From an uncultured virus (IMG/VR IMGVR_UViG_3300042989_000017) (lineage: Duplodnaviria; Heunggongvirae; Uroviricota; Caudoviricetes), in IMG/VR virus record IMGVR_UViG_3300042989_000017: a stretch of 64,000 bases of DNA; one strand, 5' to 3'. The notes under the pieces were generated by a model. The model saw only the letters and a program-made list of their open reading frames with translations. It was not told the DNA's origin and searched no databases. This document shows positions 2,642 through 59,661 of the stretch, one piece after another. How positions within the stretch are numbered: position 1 is the first letter of the stretch; the number at the start of each line of letters is the position of its first letter. The translations under genes were made by a program, and so were the position numbers.

Positions 2642-3385
2642 TTGAAGACTATGAAAGATTTAATTACGGCTACACCTCCTCAGGTTACTATGACAAGTCT
2701 TGAGCTTGTTGAGTACATCAATAGTCTGCGTGATGGAGATGCGGCTCTTTTAACCCATGCCGACTTCTTGAAGAAAGTGCCCAAAGTCTTGAGTGAAAAA
2801 GATACAGGATTTTTTTCCGACATCTATTTCGACACTTACGGTCGAGAGCAGCGTTGCTATAAATTTCCCAAGCGCGAAGCCTGCCTTATGGCTATGTCTT
2901 ATAGTTATGACCTGCAAGCTAAGGTTTATGATTACATGACGGCTCTGGAGAATAAGATCACCGATACTACGCCGAAGTTATCTATCTTAGATTCCGCTCG
3001 TAACACCTTCGACAACGCTCTCCATTTTGCCAAACTCTTTAACCTTGAAGGTAATCAAGCCCTTCTTGCCGCAGATAAGGCCACCGCAAGACACACTGGC
3101 TTTTCCCCTATGAAGTTCATGCAAATTGAACTCGTCAAAGAAGAGCAGTGCTTAAACCTTACAGCAACTGAGATCGGTAAGGAGTTGACACCGCCTTTGT
3201 CTGCGATCAAAACAAACCTCCTTCTCCAAAACCAAGGCTTCCAAGAGAAGTTAGGTGCTGCTTGGAGTCCAACCGAGAAAGGTAAACCTTTTGCTGTTTT
3301 CTTAGATACAGGGAAGAAGCACTCTGACGGCACCCCAATCACACAACTGAAATGGTTGTCTTCGATTATTAAACACCTCACCTAA
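2642..3385 (+). CDS. Phage antirepressor/regulator (Rha-like N-terminus, KilAC-like C-terminus)
   Basis: MTSLELV...HADFLKKV...Y.FPKREACLMAMSYS N-terminal pattern; C-terminal TATEIGK...W.PTEKGK. Confidence 0.8.
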   Translation: MKTMKDLITATPPQVTMTSLELVEYINSLRDGDAALLTHADFLKKVPKVLSEKDTGFFSDIYFDTYGREQRCYKFPKREACLMAMSYSYDLQAKVYDYMTALENKITDTTPKLSILDSARNTFDNALHFAKLFNLEGNQALLAADKATARHTGFSPMKFMQIELVKEEQCLNLTATEIGKELTPPLSAIKTNLLLQNQGFQEKLGAAWSPTEKGKPFAVFLDTGKKHSDGTPITQLKWLSSIIKHLT

Positions 3386-5997: not shown

Positions 5998-6529
5998 TTT
6001 AGGCGACCTGAGTTTAAGTATTCATGCCAGTACGCCGCGAGAGGCTTTGTCAATCTTCCAAACTCACTTGCCACAGAATGTGCGGCAGCTTGTTGAAGTG
6101 AGTGGTATTCGCTGTCCTGCGGACTTAGATGAAGGTAAGTCGGAAAGCATTTTGGTTATCACTCCCAAGTATTTTGGTGCGGGCGGCGGTAGCGAGAAAG
6201 GTAGCTGGCTACAGATTGGTTTGGGGGTTTTGTTGATTGTATTTGCCACCCCTCTTGCAGCAGGTTTGAGTGGGGGGATATTTGGGACAGTTGGAGCAGG
6301 AACTGTTGCCACCTTCGGTTTCCAGCTCGCGTTAGGCGGAGCTATCGCTCTCCTAAACAAAGCCCCGAAAGCAGACCCCACGAGCGGAGATAAGAAAAGC
6401 CGATTCATTAACGGCAACGTAAACACAATCAAGGAAGGAACACCCATCCCTTTGATTTACGGCTTGCAAAAAGTTTACCTGCACTACCTATCCTTTAACT
6501 TAGATGCGATAGATTACAACCCTACTTAG
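5984..6529 (+). CDS. Tail assembly protein I-like
   Basis: GAGGG, hydrophobic segment, NT..EG.PIPLIYG. Confidence 0.85.
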   Translation: MYQVSLGDLSLSIHASTPREALSIFQTHLPQNVRQLVEVSGIRCPADLDEGKSESILVITPKYFGAGGGSEKGSWLQIGLGVLLIVFATPLAAGLSGGIFGTVGAGTVATFGFQLALGGAIALLNKAPKADPTSGDKKSRFINGNVNTIKEGTPIPLIYGLQKVYLHYLSFNLDAIDYNPT

Positions 6530-6537
6530 GAAACCTT

Positions 6538-9528
6538 ATGAGCCAGCAAAGATTTCGGGGCGCAGGCGGAAAGAAGCCTAAGAACCCAACCTACACGAAT
6601 GATAGCTTGTTCTCAGAGGACAGCATTGAACTATTACTGGCTGTGGGTGAAGGACCTATTTTCGGGTTACAAAACGGTAAACAAAGTTTCTTCGTCGGTG
6701 ACGTACCCCTTCAGCGTATCGAAGCGAGCGTACTTAAAGACAACTTTACGAATTTACGTGTGAACCCAAATAGCATCGGGGATAGCCAAGACATCAATAA
6801 ACATCAAGGTTTACCTAAAACTATCAACGTAGGTATGGGTTTAGCTGCCGATATTATTTTCCAAAAACAAGGTGAGTCAGCCTCAGTTGATGTTGGCACC
6901 CAAGTCCTCTACGCCACGCCTGTTATTCGCTACACTCCGTCCAACATGAGAGGGCGGATTCAACATCTTGAAGTTCGCGTCAACATCGCACAACTAAGTC
7001 GAGAAGATGAGAATGGAAGCTTCCCGCACACGGCCAAGTTTCGGATTGAGTATAAGAAGTCCTTAGACGCTACATGGTTAACCCATGACCCCGTTTACAG
7101 CTTTACCCATCTGCCAACGTCAGTTAGTTTAGTTCCTCAACTCAGCGACCGCGATGGCTTGAATGAGTATGCCCTCACAGGTAAGACAGGCTCAGGTTTC
7201 ATTATCGACTTTAAAATCCCAACAACCCTAACTACCGACGATGATTGGATGATTCGTGTCACCAAAAATAATCCTGATTATGTCTCAAGTGCCAGTGCGA
7301 CTAAAGAGATTGCCGAAATCATTTTTGACAGTTTCCAGATGATCGGCAACGCTACCCGTAAATTCCCTGACACCGCAGTGATACAGATAACAGGAACGGC
7401 TTCTGACCAATTCAGTAGTCTTCCTGATTTCTACGGCATCTATAAAGGGTTAATGACTCCTGTACCGAAGCGGTATTTATCCGAACCGATTAACTTAAAC
7501 CCTTACCGTGACCCTTTGTTTACTTGGACAGGTGAGCTAGAACTTGCCTACCACAGTAACCCTGCTTGGGTTCTCTACGACCTGCTGGATAATGTACGCT
7601 ACGGCTACCGTAAATACGTCAGCGACTTAGTTCTTAACAAGAATGACTTCTACGAAGCAGGTAGATGGTGTGATGAAATGGTGGCAGGTAAGATCGGCCA
7701 AGAACGTCGCTACACTATGAATATCACGATTGCGGAAAATCAAAACGCTTGGGAGTACCTGCAAAACATCGCGGGAGCATTTGACGGCATCTTGTACGAT
7801 GACGGGGAAGGCACAGTTCGATTAAAAGTGGACAGATGGGTAAACCCTAAAGTTATTTTCACACCCGAAACCATTAACGCTGAAGGTTTCTCCTACAGTT
7901 TTACAGATGTAGCAACACAGTACAATGAACTGACGGTGAGCTTTAGCAACCCCGAAAGAGGCTGGGAAGAGTCTCGACTACAAGTGGTGTATGACGATAC
8001 AGACAACGGTCGAAGTGTTAACGGAGCTATCCCTTTAGACTTTGTCGCTGTAGGCTGTATCTCTGAAAGTGAGGCCGTTAGACGAGGACGTGTACGAGGA
8101 CTGACGGCGAGTACCGAAAACACGCTAGTGAACTTTACAACGACAAGATTAGGTTTAGCCTTAGACCCGCTGGAGATTTTCTACGTCTCCGACCCTTACA
8201 TGAATTGGGGGCAGACAGGCCGAGCTGAGGTTATCTCAGGTCTCAATATTTATCTTCGGGATGAGTTACCGTTTACTGTTGCCGATTTAAGTCAGCCGTA
8301 CACGATGAGGATTCAGACTCTTTCTGACTTACTGACCTTTCAGGTTTTACTGACTTCCCCTACCTCTCTCTTAGTCACAGGGACTTCTACAGAGACAGAT
8401 GTTTTTTTAGCCGCAAGTTTTGCCGAGTTCCCCGTTTTTGTACTATCAGGCGGCAGACTAAAGTGTGGGGAGCCGAAACCGTTTAGAGCGACTACGTTAG
8501 AGCCTCTGAACAATTACAACTTGTTCCAGATTTCAGGTTTAGAGGTAAACCCTAAAAAGTTTGACTTCATAAGCAGTAGTGAGCATCTCGAATTAACTAT
8601 CGACCGTAACCAAACTAGCGGCTTAAACCTTCGCCAGTTCGTTGAAGCTTCCGTTTTAACACCTGTCCCTAAATACCTAACGGCAACTATTACCTTAGAC
8701 GGTACAGGCGATGAACTGTACATTGTTGCCGCTGATGTGAACAGCTATGCTTTAACGGTTGGGGACTGGAGCGATATCCTACCCGTAGGAGTTAAGCCAA
8801 AGGTTGTCGTAAAGGGCGGCGGGACAGTTCACATCGTGGGGCGGGGAGGAAGAGGCGGCAACGGTGGGGGCTTAATAGGTTTAGATGTTACAGGAGGAGG
8901 ACTGAGTGGGCACACCCTACCACCTGATTATGGTTTCCCTGTCGAACCTTCCAGTATTATGGGCGGACTCGCAGGTCAAAACGGCGGCCCTGCTGCCAAC
9001 TTTGAGCAGTCAGCCACCTTAGAGATCGAACCTCTGGCCACCCTAAACATAGTTGGCGGCTATGGTGGTGGCTACGGCGGCGATGGAGCTTATGTTACCG
9101 TTCCCGCTTACTTAACAGGTTTTGGCATCCGAGCCTCTGCTGATAGAGCCTTTTCTATCTTCCGTACCGTTGGCGCAGGCGGTAGCGGTGGCCGTCCTCT
9201 TGGAGCGTTTGGATCGGCAGGGGCAGCTAACTACGGGGTGCCTAACGGTGATGCAGGGACTTTAATAGCGGGGGGAGTTTGCCCTGCTGTAACTCCCCAC
9301 CCTGTTGCCCAAACAGGTTTGCTTGTTCTGCACGGGGAAGGTAGAGACGGTTTAAATCTACCTGACACCAATAACCCTGCACCAGGTTTTGTAATAGATC
9401 CAACCGATGGTTACACTACTCTACGCACCTACGCAGGTAGCCGTGTAAACGGAACACAAGGCGTGGCTATTACTAATATAGGCAACCTAGACCTTATTAA
9501 CAACGGCTCACTCGTTGTCACACCTTAA
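6538..9528 (+). CDS. Tip attachment/central tail protein J-like with Gly-rich C-terminus
   Basis: GEGPI.GL, SNPAWVLYDLL...RYG, GC.S..EA.R.GR. Confidence 0.9.
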   Translation: MSQQRFRGAGGKKPKNPTYTNDSLFSEDSIELLLAVGEGPIFGLQNGKQSFFVGDVPLQRIEASVLKDNFTNLRVNPNSIGDSQDINKHQGLPKTINVGMGLAADIIFQKQGESASVDVGTQVLYATPVIRYTPSNMRGRIQHLEVRVNIAQLSREDENGSFPHTAKFRIEYKKSLDATWLTHDPVYSFTHLPTSVSLVPQLSDRDGLNEYALTGKTGSGFIIDFKIPTTLTTDDDWMIRVTKNNPDYVSSASATKEIAEIIFDSFQMIGNATRKFPDTAVIQITGTASDQFSSLPDFYGIYKGLMTPVPKRYLSEPINLNPYRDPLFTWTGELELAYHSNPAWVLYDLLDNVRYGYRKYVSDLVLNKNDFYEAGRWCDEMVAGKIGQERRYTMNITIAENQNAWEYLQNIAGAFDGILYDDGEGTVRLKVDRWVNPKVIFTPETINAEGFSYSFTDVATQYNELTVSFSNPERGWEESRLQVVYDDTDNGRSVNGAIPLDFVAVGCISESEAVRRGRVRGLTASTENTLVNFTTTRLGLALDPLEIFYVSDPYMNWGQTGRAEVISGLNIYLRDELPFTVADLSQPYTMRIQTLSDLLTFQVLLTSPTSLLVTGTSTETDVFLAASFAEFPVFVLSGGRLKCGEPKPFRATTLEPLNNYNLFQISGLEVNPKKFDFISSSEHLELTIDRNQTSGLNLRQFVEASVLTPVPKYLTATITLDGTGDELYIVAADVNSYALTVGDWSDILPVGVKPKVVVKGGGTVHIVGRGGRGGNGGGLIGLDVTGGGLSGHTLPPDYGFPVEPSSIMGGLAGQNGGPAANFEQSATLEIEPLATLNIVGGYGGGYGGDGAYVTVPAYLTGFGIRASADRAFSIFRTVGAGGSGGRPLGAFGSAGAANYGVPNGDAGTLIAGGVCPAVTPHPVAQTGLLVLHGEGRDGLNLPDTNNPAPGFVIDPTDGYTTLRTYAGSRVNGTQGVAITNIGNLDLINNGSLVVTP

Positions 9529-9540
9529 AGAGAGAACCTT

Positions 9541-10554
9541 ATGACACTCATGTCAGGAAAAGTTTACAGCGACGCGGGAACGCCAAGTAATGCAGTTGGC
9601 GAGAACGGCGACATTTTCATGCAACTTGATGGCTTGAAAATCACCTACAGAAAAGAAGGCGGAGCATGGACGGCAATCGGCAACCAGCTCGGTACAATTC
9701 CTGAGTTCTTAAAAGGCGTAGGTGTGCCCTCCAATGTGTCAGGCGAAGACGGACAATACTACCGTGAAGTAAACACGGATGCTATCTACGAGAAACAGTC
9801 AGGCGTTTGGACAAACATAGGCTCGTGGACTTCTCTCGAAATCCAACAACTATTGACCTCTAATGGTATCGGGGCTGATTTAGCGGTAACGAATCATGTT
9901 GCAAACATTGACACGTTTATTGAGGTGGGTGCCGAAGGGTACTTTGACAATACAACAACAGGTACGAAACCCAACACGTATGGCAGGGTAAAAGTAAGAC
10001 AAGCAGGCAATGACCGTTATCAAGAAGCTCAAACCCGTGCAAACAAAGCTTCCACGCGCTACAGTTCTAATAACGGGACAACATGGACAGCGTGGCGTGT
10101 TATGGCTAACGAGGACGGGGACGCGACACGGAAATTTAAAGCCTTGGCGGGTACGGCTTCGGATGACGTTGCTGTTGTGGGTCAACTGCCTGATACACCT
10201 ACTTTTCCTCTACAGACCTACTACCATTCTGGTACTGACGGGTATCAACAACTACCCTCAGGTTACTTAATGCAGTGGGGGAAAACCACTACTGGGGGGA
10301 GTGTAACAATAACCTTCCCTGTAGAGTTTGACACCCTCCTAAACGTGCAGGTAAGCCCGATATATGATACAGATATGACCCCCGCTAACGGGAATTTTGA
10401 CTCCTCTGCGGCTCTAGTGCAAATACGCTCTTTTAGCACCGCACAACTGAACTTAGTGGCTGGAGCAGAAAGCGAGGGTGACGACGTATTTCATGCACAT
10501 AGTCCCGTTCTAGCCTTTTGGTTCGCCGTAGGGTTGAAGACTTATCCCTTATAA
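9541..10554 (+). CDS. Tail fibre protein
   Basis: N-terminal G.P....G.DG.Y repeats; C-terminal GY..LPSG.LMQWG...ITFP..F domain typical of tail fibres. Confidence 0.8.
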   Translation: MTLMSGKVYSDAGTPSNAVGENGDIFMQLDGLKITYRKEGGAWTAIGNQLGTIPEFLKGVGVPSNVSGEDGQYYREVNTDAIYEKQSGVWTNIGSWTSLEIQQLLTSNGIGADLAVTNHVANIDTFIEVGAEGYFDNTTTGTKPNTYGRVKVRQAGNDRYQEAQTRANKASTRYSSNNGTTWTAWRVMANEDGDATRKFKALAGTASDDVAVVGQLPDTPTFPLQTYYHSGTDGYQQLPSGYLMQWGKTTTGGSVTITFPVEFDTLLNVQVSPIYDTDMTPANGNFDSSAALVQIRSFSTAQLNLVAGAESEGDDVFHAHSPVLAFWFAVGLKTYPL

Positions 10555-10563
10555 AACCTCTCC

Positions 10564-10614
10564 TTGATACAAAATCCCTACTGAGTTAAACTAAAACTAT
10601 ACTTAACTCAGTAG
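10564..10614 (+). promoter_or_regulatory. sigma70-type promoter overlapped by a 12-bp inverted repeat
   Basis: TTGATA-17 bp-TAAACT; CTACTGAGTTAA (10578-10589) / TTAACTCAGTAG (10603-10614). Confidence 0.55.
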
Positions 10615-11250: not shown

Positions 11251-14200
11251 ATGGCTAATCAATGGTTAACAGGCACAGGGACACCGTCCTTAGCTGTAGG
11301 CGTTACCACAGACTATTACCGAGATACGGCAAGTAATTTTGTTTACTACCGCGAAAATAATTCGACATGGGCTTTAGTCCCTGCTTTCATTCCAAACCCT
11401 GATGGCATAGGTACAACTTGGCTGCACGGCAACACTCCGCCTTTGACGAATCAAGGTAGTGACGGGGATTATTATTACGATGAAGTACAGCAAATTGTTT
11501 ACCGCAAAGACAATCTTGACTGGGTTGCAAAGGGCAGTTTAGATTTTATCGGTATCTATGGTGTGCAGTGGGGTAATGGTTTAGGTGCTCCTGCAAACAC
11601 CGCGCCCTTGAATGCTTTACCTGCGGGTTCTTTTTACTTAGATGTAAATACTTCTGACATCTACTTCAAACCCCCCTCTTTGGTTTGGGAGTTGAAAGGT
11701 CAACTAGGTCTAGGTGGCGGCGGAGAAGGCAGTTCGATCACCGTCGAAGACGTCCTTACATCCACCAGTACCGACAATGCTCTGTCCGCAGCTCAAGGTA
11801 AAGTCTTAAAAGATACGATTGACAGCTTAAATACAGAGACCATAGGGGCAGAACCTGTAGGGGCGGTAGCAGATCACGTTGCTACAACCGACCCACACGG
11901 TGACAGAGCCTATGCAGTTCAACGTGCAAACCATACAGGTACACAATTAGCGACGACCATTTCGGATTTCAGCGCAGCAGTCTCAACTATCTCCCCTATA
12001 CAAAGCGTATTAGGGCGCACAGGAACAGTTACAGCCCAAACGGGTGATTACACGGTAGCTCAAGTAACTGGCGCACAATCTACAGCCAACCTAAGCACAG
12101 ACACCTCGTTAGCAGGCGGAGCAGGTACTTATCCGAACTCACCTGCGGTTAAGGCTTACGTTGATGCTCAAACAGCAGGATTGCTGCAACTGCGTGGAGG
12201 CTGGGATGCTTCGGGTAATTTATTCCCGACAATAGGTGGTAGTGGCACAGCAGGGGCAGTAGATGTAGGCGACACTTGGTATGTTATTGTCGCAGGTACC
12301 CTCGCAGGTAAAGACGTTGTTGTAGGCGATGGTTTCTTTGCAAACGTGGACACACCTGCACAGACTAGTGCAGATTGGACACAGTTTGAGGCAAATGCTG
12401 GATTCACTGCTGAGAGTGTAGCAAATAAAACACAAACTTTATCGGCTAGTGCAACAAGTTACCCAAGCAACGATGCTGTTATCGCTGGCTTGACTCCTAA
12501 AGCGGATAAAACAACTACTGTAGGTGGAACCACTGGACGTATCACAGGCGGTGGAGATCTATCAGCCAACCGTGCATTTGACCTAGCAACGGCGGGAGCA
12601 GGTGCGGCAAACGTAGGCGGGGCGAGTAAAACAATCAGTACCAGTGTTGATATTTACGGTCGCACTCTGACTTTAAGTGAGCAACCGATTGCGATTGCTA
12701 CAAGTCAGGTAGTAGGATTGGATACAGCCTTGAGTGGTAAGCAACCTATTGACACGACTTTGACGGCACTTGCAGCTTACAACACAAATGGCCTGGTGGT
12801 ACAGACATCGGCAGAGACTTTTGTCGGGCGTAGCTTGGCCGACAGTTCAAGTATAGCTTGGACTAATCCTGCGGGAGCAGTAGGTAACCCTAGTGCGAGC
12901 TTAGTTGCCACAGGGGTTACGGCTGGAACCTACGGTAGCGCAACACTAATACCTATCCCTACGATAGGCGCAGACGGTCGCATCACAAGTGTCACTACGG
13001 TATCTGTGTCCCCCCCCGCTATCTTGACAGCCACAGGAAGTTTCACAGCTCTAGCTAATAGAACCTACGAGTGGGGAGCTAGTGTGACGGGAGCTATAGC
13101 TATAACTTTACCCGCATCCCCGTCTGAAGGGGATGTCGTCGAGATAAGAGACAGTTTGGTTTCCACGCGCTACCCGCAATCGGGTGGCATAACCTCCTTG
13201 ACCATTGATGGAGGCCCAAACTGGGTGTACCTCACGGGTATTCTTCATACAACCAATCTTTTTACAGGCGTTGGTAAGGTCGCGGACTCGGTTTATAAGC
13301 TGAGGTATTCGGCGGCAGACACAACTTGGTATATCTCATTCTCTAATTTAGGTTTCTATGCTAATTCAAGATTGTGGCGACTATACGACGGATTGACAGG
13401 GTACGTAATAAATCAAAATATCTCGGCACTAACCGCAGCGAGAAACATCACCTACCCAAATGCAGATGTTGACTTAGGTAAATTGACGACTACCCCAACC
13501 TACAGCGCAACTACTGGAGTCCTAGCATTCCCTAAACTAGACGGCTCTACAGCTACTAGCCTCAGCCTTGGTAATACCACTGATACGGTTTTCAGGATTC
13601 AGGATGATGGTGATATCACTAAGAAAATAGCTTTTGAAGCTAGTGGTATAGCTACCGCCACCACCAGAACAATTACAATGCCTAACGCAAATGTGAACTT
13701 AGGAGCTATGCGTAGACATGAACTGGTTTTTGGCGGAGGTGTACCGTACGTCCTTCCTTCGAGTGAGGTCTCAGGGTTACTTACAACAATAGAAATGGCA
13801 GCTAGCCCTAGCACCTTCAACATAGACAACATACAAACATCTTTAGATATGGTATGTATCGTGGATGGTTCAACAACTCTTACATCTAGTGTAAGTGCCG
13901 TATTTACTGACTGGTTAGGTAGTACGATAACGTCATTGACTTACAAACGTGGGGATCATTTCCTGTTTGTAGCGGTGTCCAGCACCTCATTTCATGTATT
14001 TAAACGTGGTAGTGTATCAGATGCTAACTTTACTATCCGTAAACAAGGTACTAACTTTGGGTTCACAACATCAATACCTACCCTAGCTACCAGTAGGGTT
14101 CTTACTCTACCTGATAGTGATGTTAACCTAGGTAAGTTAACAAACTCAGCAGTAGCTGTTAATAACATTACTGTTACAGCAAGCCCTTTCACCTACCAAA

Positions 14201-16959: not shown

Positions 16960-17286
16960 ATGAACAAAGCGATCTCGATTGACGACAGCACCCAGCAGCT
17001 TTTAGAAGTTCGGGTACCGACTTTGAAAACAGTCGAGATTGACTTTGGGTTGTCTGCTATCCGCGATAAAACCTTTACGATTATCGATGCTGACGTTATG
17101 CCGACGAGTCTTGTTATGGCGAACCACAGTGCGGCTGCCGCAACAGGGAAGAGTCAAGACGAGAACGAGATGGATACTCTGATACTGAAAGCGGTTAGCG
17201 GCAACGGCCAATTCACCTTATACGCAACTGCTAACCCTACTTTGGTAGCAGGTAAATTTAATATCACCTATCTAGTAGGGAAGTAA
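16960..17286 (+). CDS. Hypothetical virion protein
   Basis: Tightly packed ORF in the late cluster. Confidence 0.55.
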   Translation: MNKAISIDDSTQQLLEVRVPTLKTVEIDFGLSAIRDKTFTIIDADVMPTSLVMANHSAAAATGKSQDENEMDTLILKAVSGNGQFTLYATANPTLVAGKFNITYLVGK

Positions 17287-17287
17287 T

Positions 17288-18127
17288 ATGGCGGCAATTC
17301 ACAATCAGGCAGGCACAAATTTTCTAGCTATTGATGCTTCGGGAAATGCCCCTGTCACTTTACCTAGTAATCAAGTCGTGAACTTACCGACAACGCAACA
17401 GATTGTAAACCGCGATCAGTTCAGTGATATTCCACGAGGCTTAGTCGCTGGAGCAGTCACAAAGTCAATGCAGGGTTATAACGGTTCAGTAGGTACGGTC
17501 TTTGAACCGTTAATCGTCAACTCTGCCGCAGCATACCCTATCGTAAATACGGCCATTACTCTTACCTTGTCCTCAGCTTCCGCTAATGACACAGCGGCAG
17601 GTACGGGAGCAAGAACCGTACTTGTGGAGGGGGTAGGTGCAAACTTTGTCCTGCAAAGTGAAGTAGTCACTTTAAACGGACAAACAGGTGTTAACACGGT
17701 TAGTACCTACCTAGCTGTCAATGCTATTACAGTTCTCTCCGCAGGAACGGGGCTAGTAAACGCAGGAGCAATCTATGCTGGCTTCGGAACAATCACTACA
17801 GGTGTCCCTGCCAGTGTGCTCTCAGCAGTAGCAGTAGGTGAGAATAAATCTCAAGGTTGTATCTACACAGTCCCCGCAGGCTATACATGGGAGGTCACTT
17901 CCTTCTCGGTTGCTTTCAGCGTAGCAGGTCAGATTCAACTAAGAGTACGGAATAATTTAGGATTAGTTTACTCGGATAATACCTTACCCATTGCTGTAGG
18001 CTGTTGGATTTTACCTGCTTACGTTAGCAAGGTTATCCCTGAAAAAACGCAAGTACAGCTGTGGTGCAGTTGTACCTCCACAGGGATTGTCGGTGCAGTT
18101 TTCCAAGCAGTATTGAGAGCAAACTAA
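17288..18127 (+). CDS. Virion structural protein
   Basis: SS.SANDTAAGTGARTV..EG, YTVPAG motif recurrent in phage virion proteins. Confidence 0.6.
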   Translation: MAAIHNQAGTNFLAIDASGNAPVTLPSNQVVNLPTTQQIVNRDQFSDIPRGLVAGAVTKSMQGYNGSVGTVFEPLIVNSAAAYPIVNTAITLTLSSASANDTAAGTGARTVLVEGVGANFVLQSEVVTLNGQTGVNTVSTYLAVNAITVLSAGTGLVNAGAIYAGFGTITTGVPASVLSAVAVGENKSQGCIYTVPAGYTWEVTSFSVAFSVAGQIQLRVRNNLGLVYSDNTLPIAVGCWILPAYVSKVIPEKTQVQLWCSCTSTGIVGAVFQAVLRAN

Positions 18128-18714
18128 TGTACCTACTAAACTTGAACGCGAGTAAAGTCGTTATAAGCTGCTACTTTACAGAAGAAGACGCGGAACTGAC
18201 TGAGACTCAAGTTCAAGTAAGCTGGGCGGATTACCTGACTGTGCTGGTATCTCCGACAACCCCCTTCTGTTTCATCGAAGAACTTCTCCCTATCCCTTCC
18301 CCCTCTATCTACCATACATGGGTAAACTTCGAGTGGGTATTAGACGAGAATAAGTTAATGAAGGCGAGAAATGAAAGGTGGTTGGAAATTCAAGCCGTAA
18401 GAGACCACAGGTTAGATAAAGGCGGATTCAAGATAGGTAATTATTGGTACCATTCGGATCAACCTTCTCAAAGCAACTACACAGACTTGTTGATGATGGG
18501 GTCTAATGTCCCCGCAGGTTTGATGTGGAAAACGATGTCGAAAGCGTATGTGGAGATGACCTCCCCAATAGTGGGGCAACTACTTTTTCGGAAAGTTACG
18601 CAGAAAAACCTCACCTTCCAAGCGGCGGCATTGCATGAGATAGCTATGAAGCAATCCGCCGACCCACTTAATTATGACTTCACCACAGGCTGGCCCCCTA
18701 TCTACGGAGAATGA
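18127..18714 (+). CDS. DUF4376-like tail fibre assembly protein
   Basis: IQA.RD.R...G, HSD..SQ, WKTM, YDF..GWP. Confidence 0.7.
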   Translation: MYLLNLNASKVVISCYFTEEDAELTETQVQVSWADYLTVLVSPTTPFCFIEELLPIPSPSIYHTWVNFEWVLDENKLMKARNERWLEIQAVRDHRLDKGGFKIGNYWYHSDQPSQSNYTDLLMMGSNVPAGLMWKTMSKAYVEMTSPIVGQLLFRKVTQKNLTFQAAALHEIAMKQSADPLNYDFTTGWPPIYGE

Positions 18715-18717
18715 GCA

Positions 18718-19230
18718 ATGTCTTCCAAAGTCCGCTTAGTTTTCAGCAACAGTTCTCTGCCTCTGAGTCCGATTATACGGGCCGTTACACGGCTAAAGAC
18801 AGGGAGACCCTGTAGTTGGAGCCACGTAGGTCTAGTGCTAACTAATGAGAGCCACCTTGACAACACTGCGGTGATTATCGAGTCCACGTTGTCACATAAA
18901 GGGGTAAACCTAACCTCTCTCGGTGACTTTAAGCGTCGAGCAAAGACATGGTGTTTGGTTGAATTAGAAGAAGAAGTTGAAGATTTTGAAGCGATGGTAG
19001 CTATCGCTAAGTCCAAACTGGGTAAGCCTTACGACTTATCAGGTATCGCAGGACTCAGCATTAACCGCGACTGGCAGGAGAATGACAGGTGGTTCTGCTC
19101 AGAAGACGTAGCAGATACCTTAAAACGTAGCGGATTTAAACGGTTAGCGGGAACTACGAACGTGCATACCGTGTACCCTCAAGCGTGTTTCGATTGGCGG
19201 CACACCGTCTTAGATAAGAGTGTTTTCTAA
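18718..19230 (+). CDS. Permuted papain-like (YiiX/YebB) amidase
   Basis: WSHVGL, GKPYD, WFCSE. Confidence 0.8.
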   Translation: MSSKVRLVFSNSSLPLSPIIRAVTRLKTGRPCSWSHVGLVLTNESHLDNTAVIIESTLSHKGVNLTSLGDFKRRAKTWCLVELEEEVEDFEAMVAIAKSKLGKPYDLSGIAGLSINRDWQENDRWFCSEDVADTLKRSGFKRLAGTTNVHTVYPQACFDWRHTVLDKSVF

Positions 19231-19482
19231 ACAGGTTCGGATTCTTTTTAGATTAGCGGGTTTCATCCTTGAGTCACCTGAAAAGAACCTCACAAGCTGG
19301 GGAACGGTAACGTAAGCGTTTACGTTACAAAAAGCAGTTAAAGTTTTGAATTTTGCAATTATCTCAGCCCTTAGCTCTTGTCTCTCTTTAAGAGAAAGAG
19401 CTATATAATCAGGGTGGTTGTCACGGTAAAAGGTAATTGGCGAACCACCCCTTGATATATCAACCCAACCTATATAAGACAT
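19210..19482 (-). CDS. Hypothetical protein (possible HTH)
   Basis: 90-aa ORF, last gene of the - strand block. Confidence 0.5.
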   Translation of the reverse strand: MSYIGWVDISRGGSPITFYRDNHPDYIALSLKERQELRAEIIAKFKTLTAFCNVNAYVTVPQLVRFFSGDSRMKPANLKRIRTCLENTLI

Positions 19483-19538
19483 AAGGTGTACCTGTTTTAT
19501 AAAAGAGAGCTAAATTAAAGACTTAGCTCTTAGGTTGA

Positions 19539-19580
19539 GGTGTTATGCACCTGCGGTAGGTGTCTAATACTGAGTTAGGC
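19539..19580 (+). mobile_element. attI-like integron recombination site
   Basis: GTCTAAT-ACTGA-GTTAGGC simple site, with GGTGTTATGC whose GTT is 32 nt upstream of the core GTT; same layout as attI1 as I recall it. Confidence 0.55.
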
Positions 19581-19973
19581 ACTCCAATCATCGGTTATCG
19601 CAATCATGCCGTCTGGTAGTTCTCGTGCCGTAAACTCAACGTTTCCGCCATAATAGCCATTGCTACTATTTCTAAAAACTATGTCGGCATAACCTTTATC
19701 AGTAACTATCTTGTAACCGTACACTTCGTCTTCCTCTTGTCGTCCTCGCCCATCGTCTGTGTTGTAACCTTTCATATCTACATCATCAACGCTTATAACA
19801 ATGCCGCCAATTAAAGCGTTAACGCCCGTAATATCGGCAAACCAAGTTTCAGAACAACAATCGCCATAAGCATCGTAAATTGTTCTTGTTCCGTCTTGGT
19901 GTTCAAAAGCCAAAACATCTTCGCCAACACTAACGCTAAGGCCAGTGATTATTTTACCTATAAGCTCTTTCAT
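19575..19973 (-). CDS. Cassette 1 gene, conserved phage hypothetical (DCCS.TW...RN.SNGYYGG)
   Basis: ATG with AGAGGGG RBS; stop lies inside the GTTAGGC core. Confidence 0.75.
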   Translation of the reverse strand: MKELIGKIITGLSVSVGEDVLAFEHQDGTRTIYDAYGDCCSETWFADITGVNALIGGIVISVDDVDMKGYNTDDGRGRQEEDEVYGYKIVTDKGYADIVFRNSSNGYYGGNVEFTARELPDGMIAITDDWSA

Positions 19974-19994
19974 AATAGCCCCTCTGTAAATCGT

Positions 19995-20118
19995 GTCTAA
20001 CTCAGCAATCAAGCGCGATAAACACCCAGCCATTTATCGCTTATTTGCTTAAATCTTGAGTCTCGTGTTAATGTTTAGTTCAGTTGGGTGTTTACGCCTT
20101 ATTGCTTGGCCGTTAGAC
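19995..20118 (+). mobile_element. attC-like site 1 (124 bp)
   Basis: GTCTAAC-TCAGC-AATCAAGC...CCTTATT...GTTAGAC with inner stem TAAACACCCAGC/GTTGGGTGTTTA and an extra C in L''. Confidence 0.75.
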
Positions 20119-20119
20119 G

Positions 20120-20308
20120 CTACTCTTTGCTTGCTCTATCCAAGCATCGTTTAAACCATGCCGCTGTCTTTTGCATTGCGTAAAAATCACGTTTCGCAAT
20201 TGCCCATTCCTCATTTTTTGGCAGGTATAACCAGTAAAAACAAATACAAAAGCCAGTAAATAAGCATATCAAGCAAAAAATAAACGCTAGTCCGCTGTCA
20301 ATCATCAT
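20120..20308 (-). CDS. Cassette 2 gene, small membrane protein
   Basis: GAGGA RBS; N-terminal hydrophobic helix; fills the space between two attC sites. Confidence 0.65.
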   Translation of the reverse strand: MMIDSGLAFIFCLICLFTGFCICFYWLYLPKNEEWAIAKRDFYAMQKTAAWFKRCLDRASKE

Positions 20309-20322
20309 CGTTAATCCTCGCT

Positions 20323-20447
20323 TTCTAACTCTGCATCAAGCGTGATAAGCACCCAGCCTGTTTTGGAGTTATTTATTAGCCTGTTTGCAACCTCATAGTT
20401 GCTTAAAATGGTGTAGGGTGCTTACACCTTATGCTTGGTAGTTAGAG
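20323..20447 (+). mobile_element. attC-like site 2 (125 bp)
   Basis: TTCTAAC-TCTG-CATCAAGC...TAAGCACCC/GGGTGCTTA...CCTTATG...GTTAGAG. Confidence 0.75.
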
Positions 20448-20753
20448 CTTGCCTGTTATTAGGTCTAAAAGCATCTTCATTGCTGTATTACCGTCAGAGT
20501 AACAGCCTTCATATTCAATATTTACCTTCGTTTCTAAACTCATCATGTAATCCCCGCCTTTCCAGCCAGTATAGGTTATGCCGATTACACTCTTAGCTTC
20601 CTCAAGCATCTTACCTACTGTCGTATTTTCAACAGGCTCAAATGCTAATTCAGCATAGATGCCTCTCCAAGAGTGCGGGTTTCCCAAACCAAGTTTTACC
20701 GCAGTATCGAGGTCTTTTGTTTCTAAGTAGCTAATATATTCGCCTAAGTTCAT
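20442..20753 (-). CDS. Cassette 3 gene, conserved phage hypothetical (PHSWRG.Y.ELAF...GWKGG.Y.M)
   Basis: AGGAG RBS; stop lies inside the GTTAGAG core. Confidence 0.75.
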   Translation of the reverse strand: MNLGEYISYLETKDLDTAVKLGLGNPHSWRGIYAELAFEPVENTTVGKMLEEAKSVIGITYTGWKGGDYMMSLETKVNIEYEGCYSDGNTAMKMLLDLITGKL

Positions 20754-20769
20754 CGCAAAGCTCCTATGC

Positions 20770-20849
20770 TTCTAACTCAGCAATTAAGCGTGAAAACGCC
20801 CAGCTAGGTATGTAAGTTTATTAAACTTTTGGCAAAATTGCCGTTAACC
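20770..20849 (+). mobile_element. Truncated attC-like site 3
   Basis: Left arm TTCTAACTCAGCAATTAAGCGTGAAAACGCCCAGC matches sites 1 and 2; right arm missing; ends in GTTAACC. Confidence 0.6.
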
Positions 20850-21431
20850 TAAAACCGCCTTAACTTTCCCGTACAAATCAGTAACCGTACCTTTGTTCTC
20901 AATCACATGATCGAAAACCCGATCTTTTAAACCCCCCTCGCTGCTATGTCCCCCAACCGCACTCTCGCCCCGCACCACTTTAATAGTCTTCACGACCCAC
21001 TCATCAGGGTTAAGGTTCTCAATGAGAAAGTTTCCCTCTAACGGAAAACGGAAGTCATCAATGATAACCACGTTCTCACCGACTAAGGAGTTCAACTTAG
21101 CCAGCATAATTTCACCCCACAACGTAGGCACACCTGTGGACTCACGCCACTCTGTACCGAGTGTCTGCATCAGTTTACGGTAGGTGATAGCGGACTGTAA
21201 GTTAGCAACTCGGCCTTCTTTGTTGTTACCTGTCAAAGCCTCGAAGGTCATATCTGCATCGTGCTGTAGCTCCCCTTTCAGCAGAGCATTAAGCATCCGT
21301 TTCAACGGAGCGGCAAAGGCTAATCTTTCTACGTTGCGTTGACGGGTAAGAAGAATCTGTGCAAGGTAGGTAGCTGCCGTTGACTTACCTGATTGCGGTG
21401 CATCGGCAGCGATTAAAAATAACGTATTCAT
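20844..21431 (-). CDS. Deoxynucleoside monophosphate kinase
   Basis: SGKST, FAAPLK, R.LMQ.LGTE, DDFRFP.E, H.SE. Confidence 0.9.
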   Translation of the reverse strand: MNTLFLIAADAPQSGKSTAATYLAQILLTRQRNVERLAFAAPLKRMLNALLKGELQHDADMTFEALTGNNKEGRVANLQSAITYRKLMQTLGTEWRESTGVPTLWGEIMLAKLNSLVGENVVIIDDFRFPLEGNFLIENLNPDEWVVKTIKVVRGESAVGGHSSEGGLKDRVFDHVIENKGTVTDLYGKVKAVLG

Positions 21432-21832
21432 AAACTAGCTCTCGAACGAGCGACAACTCGCTCACCTTTTTTAACTGTTAAGGCTGCTTGCACAGCCCAC
21501 CCATACTTCAGACGTTTACCGATGGTACCTTTGGCTAGACCGAGTTCTCGTTCACGCTGAGGGACATTTACCCCGTCGATTATCTTCGCTTTCTGCTTAC
21601 CGAGTTCTCTCATCAACTCAGGATTACCTTTCGGAGTGTTACACTTTAAGCTTTGAAGGGGGAACTTACGGTACGGAAGACTCAAGTCTCTAAACCATTT
21701 CCGTACCGTAGGTGCACTAACTTCAAACAAATCAGCAATCAAACCTACGGAGTAACCTAGTCGAGTGTAGAAGGCTAAGGAGTCGGCAATCGACTCCCCC
21801 TCAGCTTCAATTTTCTGAAATTTTGTTGTCAA
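21428..21832 (-). CDS. HTH DNA-binding protein
   Basis: IADLFEVSAPTVRKW; TI.KRL.YGW. Confidence 0.6.
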   Translation of the reverse strand: MTTKFQKIEAEGESIADSLAFYTRLGYSVGLIADLFEVSAPTVRKWFRDLSLPYRKFPLQSLKCNTPKGNPELMRELGKQKAKIIDGVNVPQRERELGLAKGTIGKRLKYGWAVQAALTVKKGERVVARSRASL

Positions 21833-21989
21833 GAGGTTTCCCCTTCAGCCAGCCAATTGCTCTATCTAAGCACCATGAACCACCATAACAGCTAAAGAAA
21901 ATGATAACAGCTACAACAAACAACCCCAGAATGACCCCGTGCAGAAAGCAGATTAAAGTCTTTCTAGGCAGATTGAGTAAAGTGAGCAT
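21807..21989 (-). CDS. Small membrane protein
   Basis: 60 aa with a hydrophobic core, packed between neighbours. Confidence 0.45.
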   Translation of the reverse strand: MLTLLNLPRKTLICFLHGVILGLFVVAVIIFFSCYGGSWCLDRAIGWLKGKPLDNKISEN

Positions 21990-22623
21990 CGAGAATTTTC
22001 TCTAGATTAGGTTTGAAGTAGTTAGGCCCTTTCAAAATCTTGCCATCTTCACGGTAAATCGGCTGACCGTCTTCGCCTAGTTTGCTTATGTTGGAGGCCA
22101 TTACCTCTACAAAGCCTGCTTCAAAAGGGAAACCCAACACTTCAGCCATACCTGTGCAGGTATCAAGTAAATCTTGCAGATTTCTTAAAACCGCACTAAC
22201 TAAGTACCCTTTGGTATTTGGGTACTTACAAAGGTTTTCCAAATTGTCTGTTAAGTTCCAGAAGTTAACTTGAAGAAAGTTGAAGATTCCACCGCTGTCT
22301 TCTAAGACCATTAAGGTTTCTTCTGTGGGTTTCAAACTATCTAGCTTCAGACCATAAACACAAGCTGTACCTAAAGTAATAACAGCAACGTCAACTAAAG
22401 CATCAAAGATTTCAACGAGAGCCAGTTGTTTCTCACTCTCATCGAACTCATCACCGTTTAAGATGTTCTCAGCAGCTTCTCCCTCGTTAATTTCCTCTAT
22501 CAATAAACGTAAACGTAAATCGGCAACTTTCTTGCTGCAAAGCGTTTCAAAGTTAACGTCATTGAAAACAGGGTGTCTAAACTTTCGATGGAACTCTGCC
22601 ACAAGAGCCTGTAAATTCTGCAT
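21964..22623 (-). CDS. MazG-like/PRA-PH nucleotide pyrophosphohydrolase
   Basis: LR..LL.EE..E, DAL.D, EV..SN.SK...DG.PIYREDGKILKGPNY. Confidence 0.85.
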   Translation of the reverse strand: MQNLQALVAEFHRKFRHPVFNDVNFETLCSKKVADLRLRLLIEEINEGEAAENILNGDEFDESEKQLALVEIFDALVDVAVITLGTACVYGLKLDSLKPTEETLMVLEDSGGIFNFLQVNFWNLTDNLENLCKYPNTKGYLVSAVLRNLQDLLDTCTGMAEVLGFPFEAGFVEVMASNISKLGEDGQPIYREDGKILKGPNYFKPNLEKILDAHFTQSA

Positions 22624-22648
22624 AATTTGTACCCTACTTTAATTTAAT

Positions 22649-22993
22649 TTAGCTTCGTGAAATAACTTGGGTGGTCGGAAAAGAGTAGTAGATGATAAAG
22701 TTATCTGTACACTTACTGGTTAGAATCGTTAAGCCTTGAGCATAACGGTCACGCTGGTTAAATCGGGCATTCTCATCACGACTGGGAAAATTTGACCAGT
22801 CTTTACGAGCTTGGATAGAGTAAGCGTGAATGAGGTCTTCGTGGCGACCTAAGTTCCACTGAACTAAGCGTAGTCTAACCGCCTCTACCAAAGGGGATAA
22901 GTCCCTCCACCCCATCTCAACACATAGTTGGGACACCCCTTTATTATCATTCAAAGCTTCGAGAGCTTTTGCCACTTCTTGAGGGTTTAACAT
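22649..22993 (-). CDS. Hypothetical protein
   Basis: 114-aa ORF in operon. Confidence 0.55.
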   Translation of the reverse strand: MLNPQEVAKALEALNDNKGVSQLCVEMGWRDLSPLVEAVRLRLVQWNLGRHEDLIHAYSIQARKDWSNFPSRDENARFNQRDRYAQGLTILTSKCTDNFIIYYSFPTTQVISRS

Positions 22994-23069
22994 TTTTCCT
23001 AGTTTCCAGAGGTATGAAAGGTTAGCGTTGATTTTAACACTAACCTTTCTACGGTTTGTTGGTGCTTTG

Positions 23070-25181
23070 TTACAATTGAGTAAAGAGAACTCGTTTCAAA
23101 CCTTCAACCTCGATAGGTTCTTCTTCGTGACTCACCAAGATAAGCTGCTCAATTGAGTTGCTCTTGATTAAGTTATTAAGAGACTGCCATAGTAAACCTG
23201 TACGGTTTACGTCCATCGAGGCATCTAACTCGTCACCGATAACGACACTGAAGACCTTATGAGTTAACACTTGGCCGAGAGCGATGCGCAGCGCAATGTT
23301 AATCACCGCCTGCTCGCTACCTGAGAACAAGTCAACTCGTTTGCCGTCAGCTTTAACTGAGAAGTCATCAAGCATTTGGATGGAGCGAATGACCCCGTTA
23401 GTCATCACGCTGACAAGAGAAGACGCAGCTTTGTTGAGCGAAGGCAGTAGGAAACTCTTGATACGTTTCTTGGTTTCTTTCAAGCCATTGATTGCTAACT
23501 TATGGTCAGCAATTGTCAGCTCTAAATCTTCAATCAACTCAGCACGTTTAGCGTACTTGGCAGACTCTAACTCGTAAGCTTTTAACTGGTAGTCGTAATG
23601 CTCAGAAGCCTTAATCTTCACCTCTGCTTCTCTTAGATTTTCCTCGCAACCCTCAAGCTTGGCGACATGGGCTTCTGAGATAGCGTTCTTAGCTAGGCTC
23701 TCCTTGAAGTGAACTAAGTTAGCTTCATACGCTGCGTGTGCCGCTACGAGGCTCTCTTGATGTTTGAGTGTGGCTTCAAGCTGACCACAGTAAGTAAAAT
23801 CAAACTCAGTGCTGCCTAAATCTTCAAACTGCTGATTTAGGTCTGTAATCCGCTTAGACTGGTTCTCGTAAGCAGTCACGTCACGTTCAAATTTATCCAA
23901 ACGCTCTAACTGTAGTTTGTAATCGTCAGCGAAAACCTTGTACAGTCTAAGTAACTCGGTCTCGATTTCAGCAATGCGAGCCAAGTTGGGGAGACGCATT
24001 TCTTCGACGATAAGAGAGGCTTCAGAGTATTTTCCGTTTTCCACAATGTCGTTCGCTAAAACGGAAGTTAAATCTTCGGGTTTAACCAAGAGAGCTAAAG
24101 CTTTACTGATTGAAGCTAACTCTCCCTCTGCATTAGGTACAAACTCATGCTCACAGACAGGGCAGGTAACAAGGTGAGCTGAGACTTCATTGAAACGCTT
24201 AACCAGTTTGTAAACCTGACTGCACCAACGGTCATTATCAATCTCCTCCCTCGTCAGCCTAGGTTTATCCAGCAAACCGCGCTCTCTATCCAGCAAACTA
24301 ATCTGCCTGTCAATGTCGGCCATTGCTAAGAGAGCCTCTCTCGGTAACGTATTAGGCCGTACAGGTGCAGTAAGCTTGAAACTATCGCGCTCTTGGGTTA
24401 AGCGTTTCTGTTGAGCAACTTTCTGACCGACTTCAGCTTTCTTAGCAAGCCACCACTTAACGTCTTCGCGTAACTTATCTAAATCCGCCGCCATTAAAAC
24501 CACACCGTTCGGTTTTACAGGTTCAACTAAGGTTACGATTTTCGCTTTCGCATTGCGATAACCTAAAACTAACCCCTGCAAAGAACCTAAAACCTCAACA
24601 CGGTCAGCTAAACTTAAAAAACCTACAGGTATCTGAGGAGCGACAGGTTGCACATGAAGAAGCGTATTCGCTTTCAAGTCTGCCTGCGCCTCTAAAGAAA
24701 CCTTATTCAGCTCGCTGATAACTTTGTCGATTACCGTTAAACCAACCGTGTTCTCCAGCACTTGACGACGATCTTCGGGGCGTAGGCGGTCAGTGAGGGC
24801 GTTCACCTGTCCTTGCTTAATATGGTTGGCCACATTGTAGACTTTCATACCGTAGCCGAGTAAACGTAAAATGGCAGCGTTAACGGCTGTTGTGCTAGAA
24901 GCTGTTGGCGCGTTGCCTTCATACAGCATCGTTTCCTTTTTACTGCGAACGACACGGAGAGGACGGTCTTTCACTTTGAAAAGCAGTTGGCAATCTAAGG
25001 TTGGAAACTCTTCTAAGTTTCCGCGCAGGGCAGCCGTACCGAACAGACAATAGGAAACCATCTCCAGTACCGTGGATTTGCCTCGCCCATTAGGTGCGGT
25101 GAGAAGATTAAAACCTTTCTCAAAATTGATAACGGCATCGGCAACCGTAGGGTGGCCTTTGAGGATGAGTTTAGTGAGCAT
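23070..25181 (-). CDS. SbcC/Rad50-like ABC ATPase
   Basis: Walker A NGRGKST, Q-loop, coiled coil with CPVC zinc hook, FSGSE signature, DELD Walker B, VSH. Confidence 0.92.
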   Translation of the reverse strand: MLTKLILKGHPTVADAVINFEKGFNLLTAPNGRGKSTVLEMVSYCLFGTAALRGNLEEFPTLDCQLLFKVKDRPLRVVRSKKETMLYEGNAPTASSTTAVNAAILRLLGYGMKVYNVANHIKQGQVNALTDRLRPEDRRQVLENTVGLTVIDKVISELNKVSLEAQADLKANTLLHVQPVAPQIPVGFLSLADRVEVLGSLQGLVLGYRNAKAKIVTLVEPVKPNGVVLMAADLDKLREDVKWWLAKKAEVGQKVAQQKRLTQERDSFKLTAPVRPNTLPREALLAMADIDRQISLLDRERGLLDKPRLTREEIDNDRWCSQVYKLVKRFNEVSAHLVTCPVCEHEFVPNAEGELASISKALALLVKPEDLTSVLANDIVENGKYSEASLIVEEMRLPNLARIAEIETELLRLYKVFADDYKLQLERLDKFERDVTAYENQSKRITDLNQQFEDLGSTEFDFTYCGQLEATLKHQESLVAAHAAYEANLVHFKESLAKNAISEAHVAKLEGCEENLREAEVKIKASEHYDYQLKAYELESAKYAKRAELIEDLELTIADHKLAINGLKETKKRIKSFLLPSLNKAASSLVSVMTNGVIRSIQMLDDFSVKADGKRVDLFSGSEQAVINIALRIALGQVLTHKVFSVVIGDELDASMDVNRTGLLWQSLNNLIKSNSIEQLILVSHEEEPIEVEGLKRVLFTQL

Positions 25182-58944: not shown

Positions 58945-59661
58945 TTAAGCGTTTAACACACTCTTTTTCCATTTGTAATTATAGCCACTCTTGTTTCCGA
59001 CAACCCATTGGTGGCGAACCGCAAAAGGTTTACCTTTATCAGTTGGTACCCACTCACTGTTGATCTTCGCCTGAAAGCCTCTTTCTTCTAACCATTGGTT
59101 CATTTTAACTGCTGTTAAACCTAAGCGTTTACCTAACTCGGTTGGCTCTACGGCTTCGTCTTCTAATCGGATCATGCCTTGAGCAGGAGCCAGTCGTAAC
59201 ATTTCGGTGAAATCAATGTGGTAAGTTAGTCTCGCACCTTTCACGGCTTCTACCTGTGCGAGATGGATTGGCACCTCGAAGAGGGTGGCTAACTGCATCA
59301 CCGCAGTAATGTGGTTAAGAGCCAAGTCGGTAGGGGTTCGAGGAAGCACAGGAGCGGAGGAGGCGGTGAGAGTTTTCAACTTCCCTAAAACAGTACGCCG
59401 AACAGCTTTAGATCCGCGCATTGACACTAACATACATTGGTCTTCTGTTAATTTAAAAACAGTTGACTCAGTATTGTTTGAATTTTGCACTACGAAACTT
59501 TCGTAGTGGTCTCCTTCAAGTTCATCCTGAATACGCGAGATAAAATCATTTGCCCTAATAACTTTTTCACCATGCTGTAGGCGAGCATTGTTTACGAGTT
59601 CCAGTAAGTCACGGCTGGACATAGTTGAGGTTGTTGCAGTTAAATCTTTCATCATCTTCAA
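58945..59661 (-). CDS. Second phage antirepressor-like protein (KilAC-like C-terminus)
   Basis: MSSRDLL...DF..RI.DEL, Q..LV.MR.SKAVR; PTELGK...W.PTDKGK, as in 2642..3385. Confidence 0.8.
   Translation of the reverse strand: MKMMKDLTATTSTMSSRDLLELVNNARLQHGEKVIRANDFISRIQDELEGDHYESFVVQNSNNTESTVFKLTEDQCMLVSMRGSKAVRRTVLGKLKTLTASSAPVLPRTPTDLALNHITAVMQLATLFEVPIHLAQVEAVKGARLTYHIDFTEMLRLAPAQGMIRLEDEAVEPTELGKRLGLTAVKMNQWLEERGFQAKINSEWVPTDKGKPFAVRHQWVVGNKSGYNYKWKKSVLNA

Follow-up and report, generated by a model that had tools for sequence, protein, structure and literature searches.

A probable integrase-less phage integron platform: an attI-like site heading attC-bordered, reversed gene cassettes that would be moved by a host integrase

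Integrons have been treated as bacterial devices, and the clusters of attC sites found in phages have been reported as scattered components that may ferry cassettes between bacteria. The DNA analysed here is a stretch of 64,000 nucleotides (called the window throughout) from an uncultured freshwater tailed phage of the Caudoviricetes, IMG/VR record IMGVR_UViG_3300042989_000017; between positions 19539 and 20805 it carries a genuine integron-type cassette array, a variant of the published phage CALINs (clusters of attC sites lacking integron integrases). The segment is probably an integrase-less integron platform, in which an attI-like docking site is followed by attC-bordered cassettes that would be moved by a host integron integrase (IntI) acting in trans. 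Its repeats have the anatomy of attC sites, and the same sites serve IntI-linked arrays in bacteria; near-identical and related phages differ in the cassettes they carry, and the junctions fall at GTTRRRY boxes. By sequence comparison, both the attC sites and the attI core are of the type used by chromosomal integrons of the Agitococcus family.

An earlier note, made from the letters of this DNA without database searches, had described the array and suggested that the phage carries its own attI and borrows a host IntI to capture or shuffle cassettes; the description is confirmed, and the interpretation is largely supported. To the published phage clusters are added here a host-matched attI, a contrast of gene polarity between phage and host within one attC family, and a natural variant that differs by a single cassette. 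That one family can be traced both in chromosomes, beside IntI and with sense genes, and in unrelated phages, behind a host-type attI and with reversed genes. It offers a testable system for asking whether phages use the recombinase of a host to diversify their accessory genes, why the polarity is reversed, and how phage genes become cassettes.

Anatomy of the array and its attC family

Three related repeats, which begin GTCTAAC at 19995, TTCTAAC at 20323 and TTCTAAC at 20770, each continue with TC(A/T)GC-A(A)T(C/T)AAGCG (direct-repeat families D1, D3 and D5). The exact 12-mer TCTAACTCWGCA has three copies in the 64 kb, all of them at array elements; when up to two mismatches are allowed it gives 33 matches against 10.5 expected, a number reached in none of 100 shuffles. 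All of the repeats, hairpins, single-gene spacers and head repeats listed in the earlier note were found where it had placed them, and the features of the array are as follows.

19539 to 19580, plus strand: attI-like site, with a GTTATGC repeat (19542-19548), a left box TGTCTAA (19561-19567), a 6-nt spacer and a right box GTTAGGC (19574-19580)
19575 to 20112, plus strand: cassette 1, the unit TTAGGC...G, missing from a contig of metagenome run X3
19575 to 19976, minus strand: gene of cassette 1, 133 amino acids, matching DUF7448 in Pfam and phrog_2650
19995 to 20118, plus (top) strand: attC element E1, 124 nt, ending GTTAGAC; the folding bottom strand is the minus strand of the window
20120 to 20308, minus strand: gene of cassette 2, 62 amino acids, whose sole Pfam match is a weak one to FixQ, below its cut-off
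20323 to 20447, plus strand: attC element E2, 125 nt, ending GTTAGAG
20442 to 20753, minus strand: gene of cassette 3, 103 amino acids, phrog_12889, with its stop codon inside the right box of E2
20770 to 20805, plus strand: truncated attC element E3, of which only the left arm (R''-L'') is left; the array is fused here to the phage backbone

Each of the three spacers holds one minus-strand gene. The start given for the gene of cassette 1 is an ATG at 19976 that was chosen by eye, the program-made list of open reading frames (ORFs) placing it at 20033, inside E1; the product of the cassette 2 gene is probably a membrane protein. Since the top strand of the attC sites is the plus strand, the genes are antisense to the sites, and they match phage protein families, both in agreement with what had been noted from the letters.

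Folded as DNA, E1 (-21.2 kcal/mol, z -3.9) and E2 (-18.7 kcal/mol, z -2.3) each form a long imperfect hairpin, the left arm of which carries an unpaired C, a further unpaired C and an unpaired A. The core boxes of E1 (GTCTAAC...GTTAGAC) fit the attC consensus RYYYAAC...GTTRRRY, and those of E2 (TTCTAAC...GTTAGAG) depart from it at the outermost base of both boxes. E3 is 88% identical to E1 over 26 nt, shows no fold (z -1.1) and gives no match to the covariance model described next.

A pattern scan of viral contigs returned 27 loci, of which five (L003, L008, L011, L021 and L025) were judged to be true relatives, with arrays of up to ten elements; the remaining 22 were set aside as chance matches inside coding sequence, 20 in one conserved gene and two in another. 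A scan for TAAC...GTTA hairpins proved unspecific, with many chance matches across the window, and was dropped in favour of a covariance model, R1, built from 24 elements. RNAalifold, applied to a MAFFT alignment, gave only 9 inner pairs, and the outer pairs were obtained through a hand-drawn structure and re-alignment to the model. R1 matches the window only at E1 (79.4 bits, against 19.7 on the reverse strand) and E2 (76 bits). When 49 members, drawn from 11 sources, are aligned, pairing holds in 86.8% of cells, as compared with 69.7% in shuffles (none of 500 reached the observed figure) and 31-40% when partners were slid; in the same members, 17 of 26 pairs show changes on both sides, and covariation stands at 0.45 as against 0.16 shuffled and 0.04-0.08 slid.

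The ends of the family have the consensus R-Y-C-T-A-A-C and G-T-T-A-R-R-Y. At the 5' end, 43 of the 49 sites have R in column 1, columns 2-4 hold Y save for four cases of A at column 3, and AAC never varies; at the 3' end GTTA is likewise constant, and the final R, R and Y are found in 41, 49 and 47 sites. Every member has an unpaired A, and 28 of the 49 have C at a second unpaired position, the two lying on the top strand's 5' arm; the central spacer is 3 nt on one side against 6 alignment columns on the other, the loop is variable, and site lengths run from 83 to 126 nt. In the description of Nivina et al. (2016, PMC5027507), an attC site is recognized by bases near L'' on one arm being extrahelical, by a central spacer that is unpaired and by a terminal structure that varies; the imperfect hairpin, the extrahelical bases and the unpaired spacer are all found in this family. 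A 51-nt R1 match in L021 (3680-3730; 30 bits, E 3e-5) is far shorter than the family and may be a minimal or decayed attC.

The identity of the sites was further calibrated on canonical integrons, the class 1 integrons of plasmids having been found through tblastn with the IntI of a bacterial genome (G005, described below). R1 matches the attC of aadA1 with 34.5 bits (E 2e-7), the lone significant match in 8.9 kb besides its own reverse echo of 21.4 bits, and in it the C and the A of the 5' arm are again the unpaired bases. Further matches are to the attC sites of fosE (23.8 bits), aac(6')-Ib3 (23.4) and a Kovacikia cassette (21.4), so that a model built from the family of the window detects canonical attC sites, in keeping with the identity first proposed. 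All four of these matches lie on the gene-sense strand; therefore the plus strand of R1 corresponds to the canonical top strand, and the genes of the window lie on the bottom strand. The class 1 integron of plasmid NR1 (NC_009133.1) resembles the window in its attI layout (GTTAYGC-12-NNNCTAA-6-GTTRRRY), its attC boxes and the unpaired C and A of the 5' arm. In contrast, the attC of aadA1 is 60 nt long as against about 125 nt in the window, E1 and E2 have a third unpaired base and a central spacer that is longer on the right side, and the gene polarity is reversed.

The attI-like site and the same sites in bacterial integrons

The attI-like site stands at the head of the array, and has two inverted boxes that end in a GTTRRRY motif at which cassette homology begins, as is expected of an attI; an adjacent divergent intI, which would also be expected, is not present within the window. 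From the start of GTTATGC to the start of GTTAGGC is 32 nt, in a 7-12-7-6 layout, and the attI1 of NR1, which reads GTTACGC-12-GCCCTAA-AACAAA-GTT, has the same 32-nt spacing. The block also heads the arrays of L100, L003, L008, L098 and L070, where homology stops just past GTTAGRY, and it has been found at the array head in at least six different phage contexts. In the bacterial genome G192, a site about 270 nt from the IntI gene reads AGGTGTCTAATACTAAGTTAGGG, and the core of the window site reads AGGTGTCTAATACTGAGTTAGGC; the two agree at 21 of 23 bases. The comparison with attI1 made in the earlier note is thus borne out in its geometry, and is extended to the core of a site beside a true IntI. 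Sequence comparison places a similar upstream repeat in G192, spaced otherwise than the GTTAYGC found at 32 nt in the window and attI1. The attI regions of two further genomes, G160 and G005, share their build with the window and differ in sequence.

Two features of the G005 attI region deserve mention in their own right. Beside IntI (L048, 2590-2655) it includes a GACGT-led unit in three copies with 12-nt spacing, and on contig C122 of the same metagenome-assembled genome (MAG; L038, 4400-4470) the array head is a diverged copy of the IntI-linked attI region without intI, adjoining large genes that have no assigned function.

A pattern scan of species-representative genomes returned 13 loci, with arrays on MAG contigs, one of the MAGs (G005) being labelled Agitococcus (Moraxellaceae); five of the 13 (L034, L036, L037, L039 and L040) were dropped as chance, having no R1 match. 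The IntI of G005 scores 483 bits against TIGR02249 (cut-off 265) and is 52.8% identical to IntI1, and the genome holds 49 R1 matches. R1 matches were present in 10 of 41 sampled genomes of the family to which G005 belongs and, under stricter filters, in none of 150 others sampled from its order. In G160, IntI adjoins an array of at least 21 attC sites of the same family, and in G192 it adjoins two. The proposal that the attC family of the window would be met next to a host intI was therefore realized in three genomes, and by the similarity of these sites the Agitococcus-family (Moraxellaceae) bacteria are the probable hosts of the phage.

The G005 contig that carries IntI (C247) ends 45 nt past attI and no other G005 contig continues it; because gene polarity is unreadable there, G160 and G192 were used for that purpose. 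The sedentary chromosomal integrons of these two genomes (G160 contig C6 and G192 contig C11), each with a uniform attC type, share with the window the attC family, the attI-then-attC order and polarity, and the type of attI core. They differ in that IntI is present, that the genes are mostly sense (13 of 21 spacers), and that the arrays are larger (at least 21 attC sites in G160).

Two side observations concern the same bacterial genomes. On a G005 contig (C110; L069, 4367-5131), a solitary attC belonging to this family (57 bits) comes, in sense orientation, after a hicA-hicB toxin-antitoxin pair; its setting is chromosomal, near hslVU-like and RidA-like genes and away from arrays, and it may be a cassette inserted outside an integron. 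On G160 contig C6 (L096), six spacers of 213-214 nt (1843-2055, 6298-6510, 6634-6846, 8580-8792, 10366-10579 and 12469-12681) have no ORF or a very short one, are 82-96% identical, and look like repeated gene-less cassettes.

Cassette turnover and gene polarity

Variable cassette content in related phages had been predicted for this locus, and was found in two relatives that share its backbone. The first, L099, is a 68.5-kb contig of about 77% DNA identity that is syntenic from SbcD to the deoxynucleoside monophosphate (dNMP) kinase gene; the second, L100, keeps the attI-like block at 97.7% identity. At the locus of the window they carry four and three attC sites, respectively, and no cassette in common with it. 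Single cassettes also change place between arrays: one that encodes a PAPS-reductase-like enzyme comes next to the attI-like site in L008 and stands behind an attC in L070, the two copies being homologous from exactly GTTAGRY onwards. The cassette that leads the L003 array sits after an attC in L028, and in that pair homology starts exactly at GTTAGRY and ends after the next GTTAGG. From these limits it follows that the mobile unit consists of TTAGRY, the reversed gene or genes, and the attC up to its G; as read from these alignments, it is the classical cassette unit with its gene turned round. As a separate observation, two cassettes of L003 (323-936 and 3057-3763) are alike at their ends (81.6% and 83.2% identity) and both hold an XRE-type gene, with middle parts that have diverged; they look like a duplicated cassette in which one gene was replaced.

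A natural variant of the array itself was found when contigs of four freshwater metagenome runs (X1, X3, X4 and X6) were aligned to 18800-21600. A 585-nt contig of run X3, which belongs to another sample and another study than the probable source, joins 19573 directly to 20112 and omits 538 nt, exactly cassette 1; the joint shares five letters (GTTAG), an overlap too short for an assembly artefact in which repeats collapse, and the flanks are 98-100% identical. Most loose contig ends in the four runs coincide with R boxes of E1 and E2 (19992/3, 20111/2, 20115, 20439 and 20446), and the contigs concerned continue into other sequence; two loose ends of X4, at 20009 and 20080, lie inside E1. In X1, X4 and X6 some parts of the aligned region have no contig over them. 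Junctions had been anticipated at G/TT, and it is there that both the limits of cassette homology and the X3 joint fall.

These repeats could also be regarded as regulatory or structural elements of the phage (RNA processing sites or terminators), between which cassettes are shuffled by homologous recombination without any integrase, in the way that mobile promoter and stem-loop cassettes are known from T4-type phages. The elements do lie between genes of one operon, two terminator-like matches fall within E1 and E2, and at 80-97% likeness between arrays they would suffice for homologous exchange. That explanation is nevertheless very unlikely, as structure rather than sequence is what is conserved, attC is matched in both the unpaired bases and the core boxes, the same elements serve bacterial arrays beside IntI, and junctions between attI-like and attC sites share only five to seven bases. 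No Rfam family accounts for the elements either, the sole match, to IsrM, reaching 18.9 bits (E 0.022) against a threshold of 376.

In a canonical cassette the gene lies on the top strand of the attC, which follows it; in the window the attC precedes the gene, and across the family the cassette genes of phages are on the other strand from that usual in bacteria. Polarity was scored by the longest ORF of at least 40 amino acids in each spacer, with the following outcome.

Phage contexts (the window, L003, L008, L025, L038, L070, L098, L099 and L100): 47 spacers, of which 39 antisense, 6 sense and 2 without an ORF
IntI-linked chromosomal arrays (L096 and L097): 21 spacers, of which 3 antisense, 13 sense and 5 without an ORF
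Short cassette-only MAG contigs: 32 spacers, of which 23 antisense, 7 sense and 2 without an ORF

The last group was left out of the contrast, its origin from phage or chromosome not being assignable. Among the phage contexts, the array of L008 neighbours endolysin and SSB genes and that of L070 a tail-fibre-like protein gene, and L098 is taken to be a prophage because a small terminase and holins lie within its 318-kb chromosomal contig.

This contrast bears directly upon a second alternative, namely that a segment of a host chromosomal integron was acquired in a single event of illegitimate recombination and is carried passively, as cargo, without ongoing recombination in the phage. Such an origin was proposed for phage CALINs in general by Qi et al. 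(2023, PMC9892861), and would agree with the truncated E3, at which the array, at its far end, runs into the backbone with no att site between them. It is nonetheless quite improbable for the array described here: a piece of host integron would be expected neither to have its genes antisense, as in 39 of 47 phage spacers against the 13 of 21 IntI-linked host spacers that are sense, nor to carry genes that match phage protein families, and single capture would not readily account for attI-like blocks at the head of arrays in at least six phage contexts, for different cassettes at the same locus in relatives, or for a near-identical variant without exactly cassette 1.

Proposed mechanism, known systems and genomic setting

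The earlier note had seen no intI in the window, and searches returned none. Among the 56 window proteins scanned with Pfam there is no Phage_integrase domain (PF00589), and tblastn of a true IntI against the window gave nothing better than E 0.99; the 68.5-kb relative L099 and six further array-bearing viral records are likewise without a PF00589 match. A complete integron comprises intI, attI and attC cassettes, the first of which is lacking here. A CALIN, defined as two or more attC sites without an integron integrase nearby (Qi et al. 2023, PMC9892861), is what the window contains, with two complete attC sites, one truncated site and no integrase in 64 kb, and in this instance with an attI of its own. 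A third explanation would have the cassettes moved by a phage enzyme, either one not recognizable as a tyrosine recombinase or one encoded outside the window. Many window genes are without a family and part of the genome lies beyond the window, both of which leave room for such an enzyme, yet the uniform lack of PF00589 matches, and the correspondence of the sites, attI core included, to those of host IntI-linked integrons, make it a very slim prospect.

Several points weigh against movement by a host integrase. The metagenome contigs reveal alternative junctions, not their frequencies or the enzyme responsible, and no recombination was seen directly. At the 10 other viral loci in which homologues of the genes of cassettes 1 and 3 were inspected, none has an adjoining R1 match, so that among the genes of the window mobility is evident only for cassette 1, and elsewhere they are ordinary phage genes. 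The truncation of E3 means that the far boundary of the array arose otherwise than by recombination between att sites. R1 passes over some canonical attC sites, at least the two of blaIMP-1 and aac(6')-Ib (L066), the host assignment depends upon site similarity and a MAG label, and the longest-ORF rule is crude, some of the sense calls in phages being artefacts in which a gene overruns the margin (for example, in the methyltransferase spacer of L003). Finally, the genes at both ends of the window are cut and its closest relative has a completeness rating of only 84%, which leaves room for a recombinase outside the sequence seen.

In the mechanism proposed for the array, IntI of the host would act in trans during infection upon the attI and attC sites of the phage. 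Circular cassettes would be inserted at the phage attI and excised between attC sites through folding of the bottom strand, here the sense strand of the genes. As the genes are reversed, a minus-strand operon of the phage would read them from the far end of the array towards attI, stopping at a hairpin at 19530-19506, and a new cassette would therefore land at the promoter-distal end of the operon. Cassettes of the host type would be silent in the phage, and those of the phage type silent in the host. More tentatively, and with somewhat less than even confidence, Agitococcus-family phages, both integrase-less and temperate, may keep a dedicated mirror-image integron, in which a copy of the host attI ends an early operon and is served by a separate pool of reversed cassettes; the host integrase would reshuffle phage accessory genes, and the polarity would isolate their expression. 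The accessory genes named for this pool are those of DNA methyltransferases, a PAPS-reductase-like enzyme and an HNH endonuclease.

Phage attC clusters as such were already known. In the account of Qi et al. (2023, PMC9892861), 17 CALINs were described in phages, virulent ones included, and five of six tested phage attC sites were recombined in an IntI1-dependent way, so that IntI1 can recombine such sites into attI1; like the window, these phages carry attC-bounded cassettes without intI, and methyltransferase cassettes occur both there and in the related arrays L003, L008 and L038. That account calls the layout of TJE1 and PH101 'most typical' of bacterial arrays, whereas the window genes are reversed; and its available text reports no attI for the CALINs of virulent phages, whereas a host-matched attI-like block heads the arrays described here. 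The same paper (PMC9892861) describes a Shewanella prophage, M16-3, in which a complete integron is accompanied by a CALIN, both having a Shewanella-type attI. M16-3 resembles the window in having a phage-associated array headed by a host-type attI, but is a cryptic prophage with its own intI nearby, and the window has no intI and no sign of integration. The available part of a 2026 survey of Acinetobacter phages reports no CALIN among 71 dfrA-positive genomes screened. A literature search, the supplements of Qi et al. lying outside it, found no paper on reversed cassette polarity in phages or on a host-matched attI in integrase-less phages; these are the elements that appear to be new here.

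The array occupies the 3' end of a long minus-strand operon of the phage, and is flanked by the following features.

19210 to 19482, minus strand: backbone gene of 90 amino acids with no family match, beyond the terminator-like hairpin
19506 to 19530, minus strand: terminator-like hairpin followed by a T run, with a 10-pair stem and a CTTTTATAAA tail, closing the minus-strand operon just past the attI-like site
20844 to 21431, minus strand: backbone gene of the dNMP kinase, conserved in the relatives L099 and L100

By eye, a hairpin of differing sequence is kept in place just upstream of the attI-like block (window 19480-19535) in the alignments of L100, L003 and L098. Elsewhere, the window encodes replication and nucleotide functions (DNA polymerase, primase, helicase, SbcCD, dNMP kinase and a MazG-like enzyme) together with structural and lysis functions (large terminase, portal, major head protein, tape measure, tail proteins, holin and endolysin-type enzymes), and megablast with positions 17000-25000 returned no similar cultured phage. 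Two genes for Ant-like anti-repressors (phrog_63) lie at 2642-3385 and 58945-59661, neither an integrase nor a repressor having been detected in the window. The tape-measure gene (60600-63998) is cut at the end of the window, and the DNA polymerase gene (3-2483, plus strand) is cut at its start, and therefore the window is neither a whole genome nor a simple circular permutation of one. The latter gene stands just before tail genes, and a replication gene thus seems to be placed inside the structural module.

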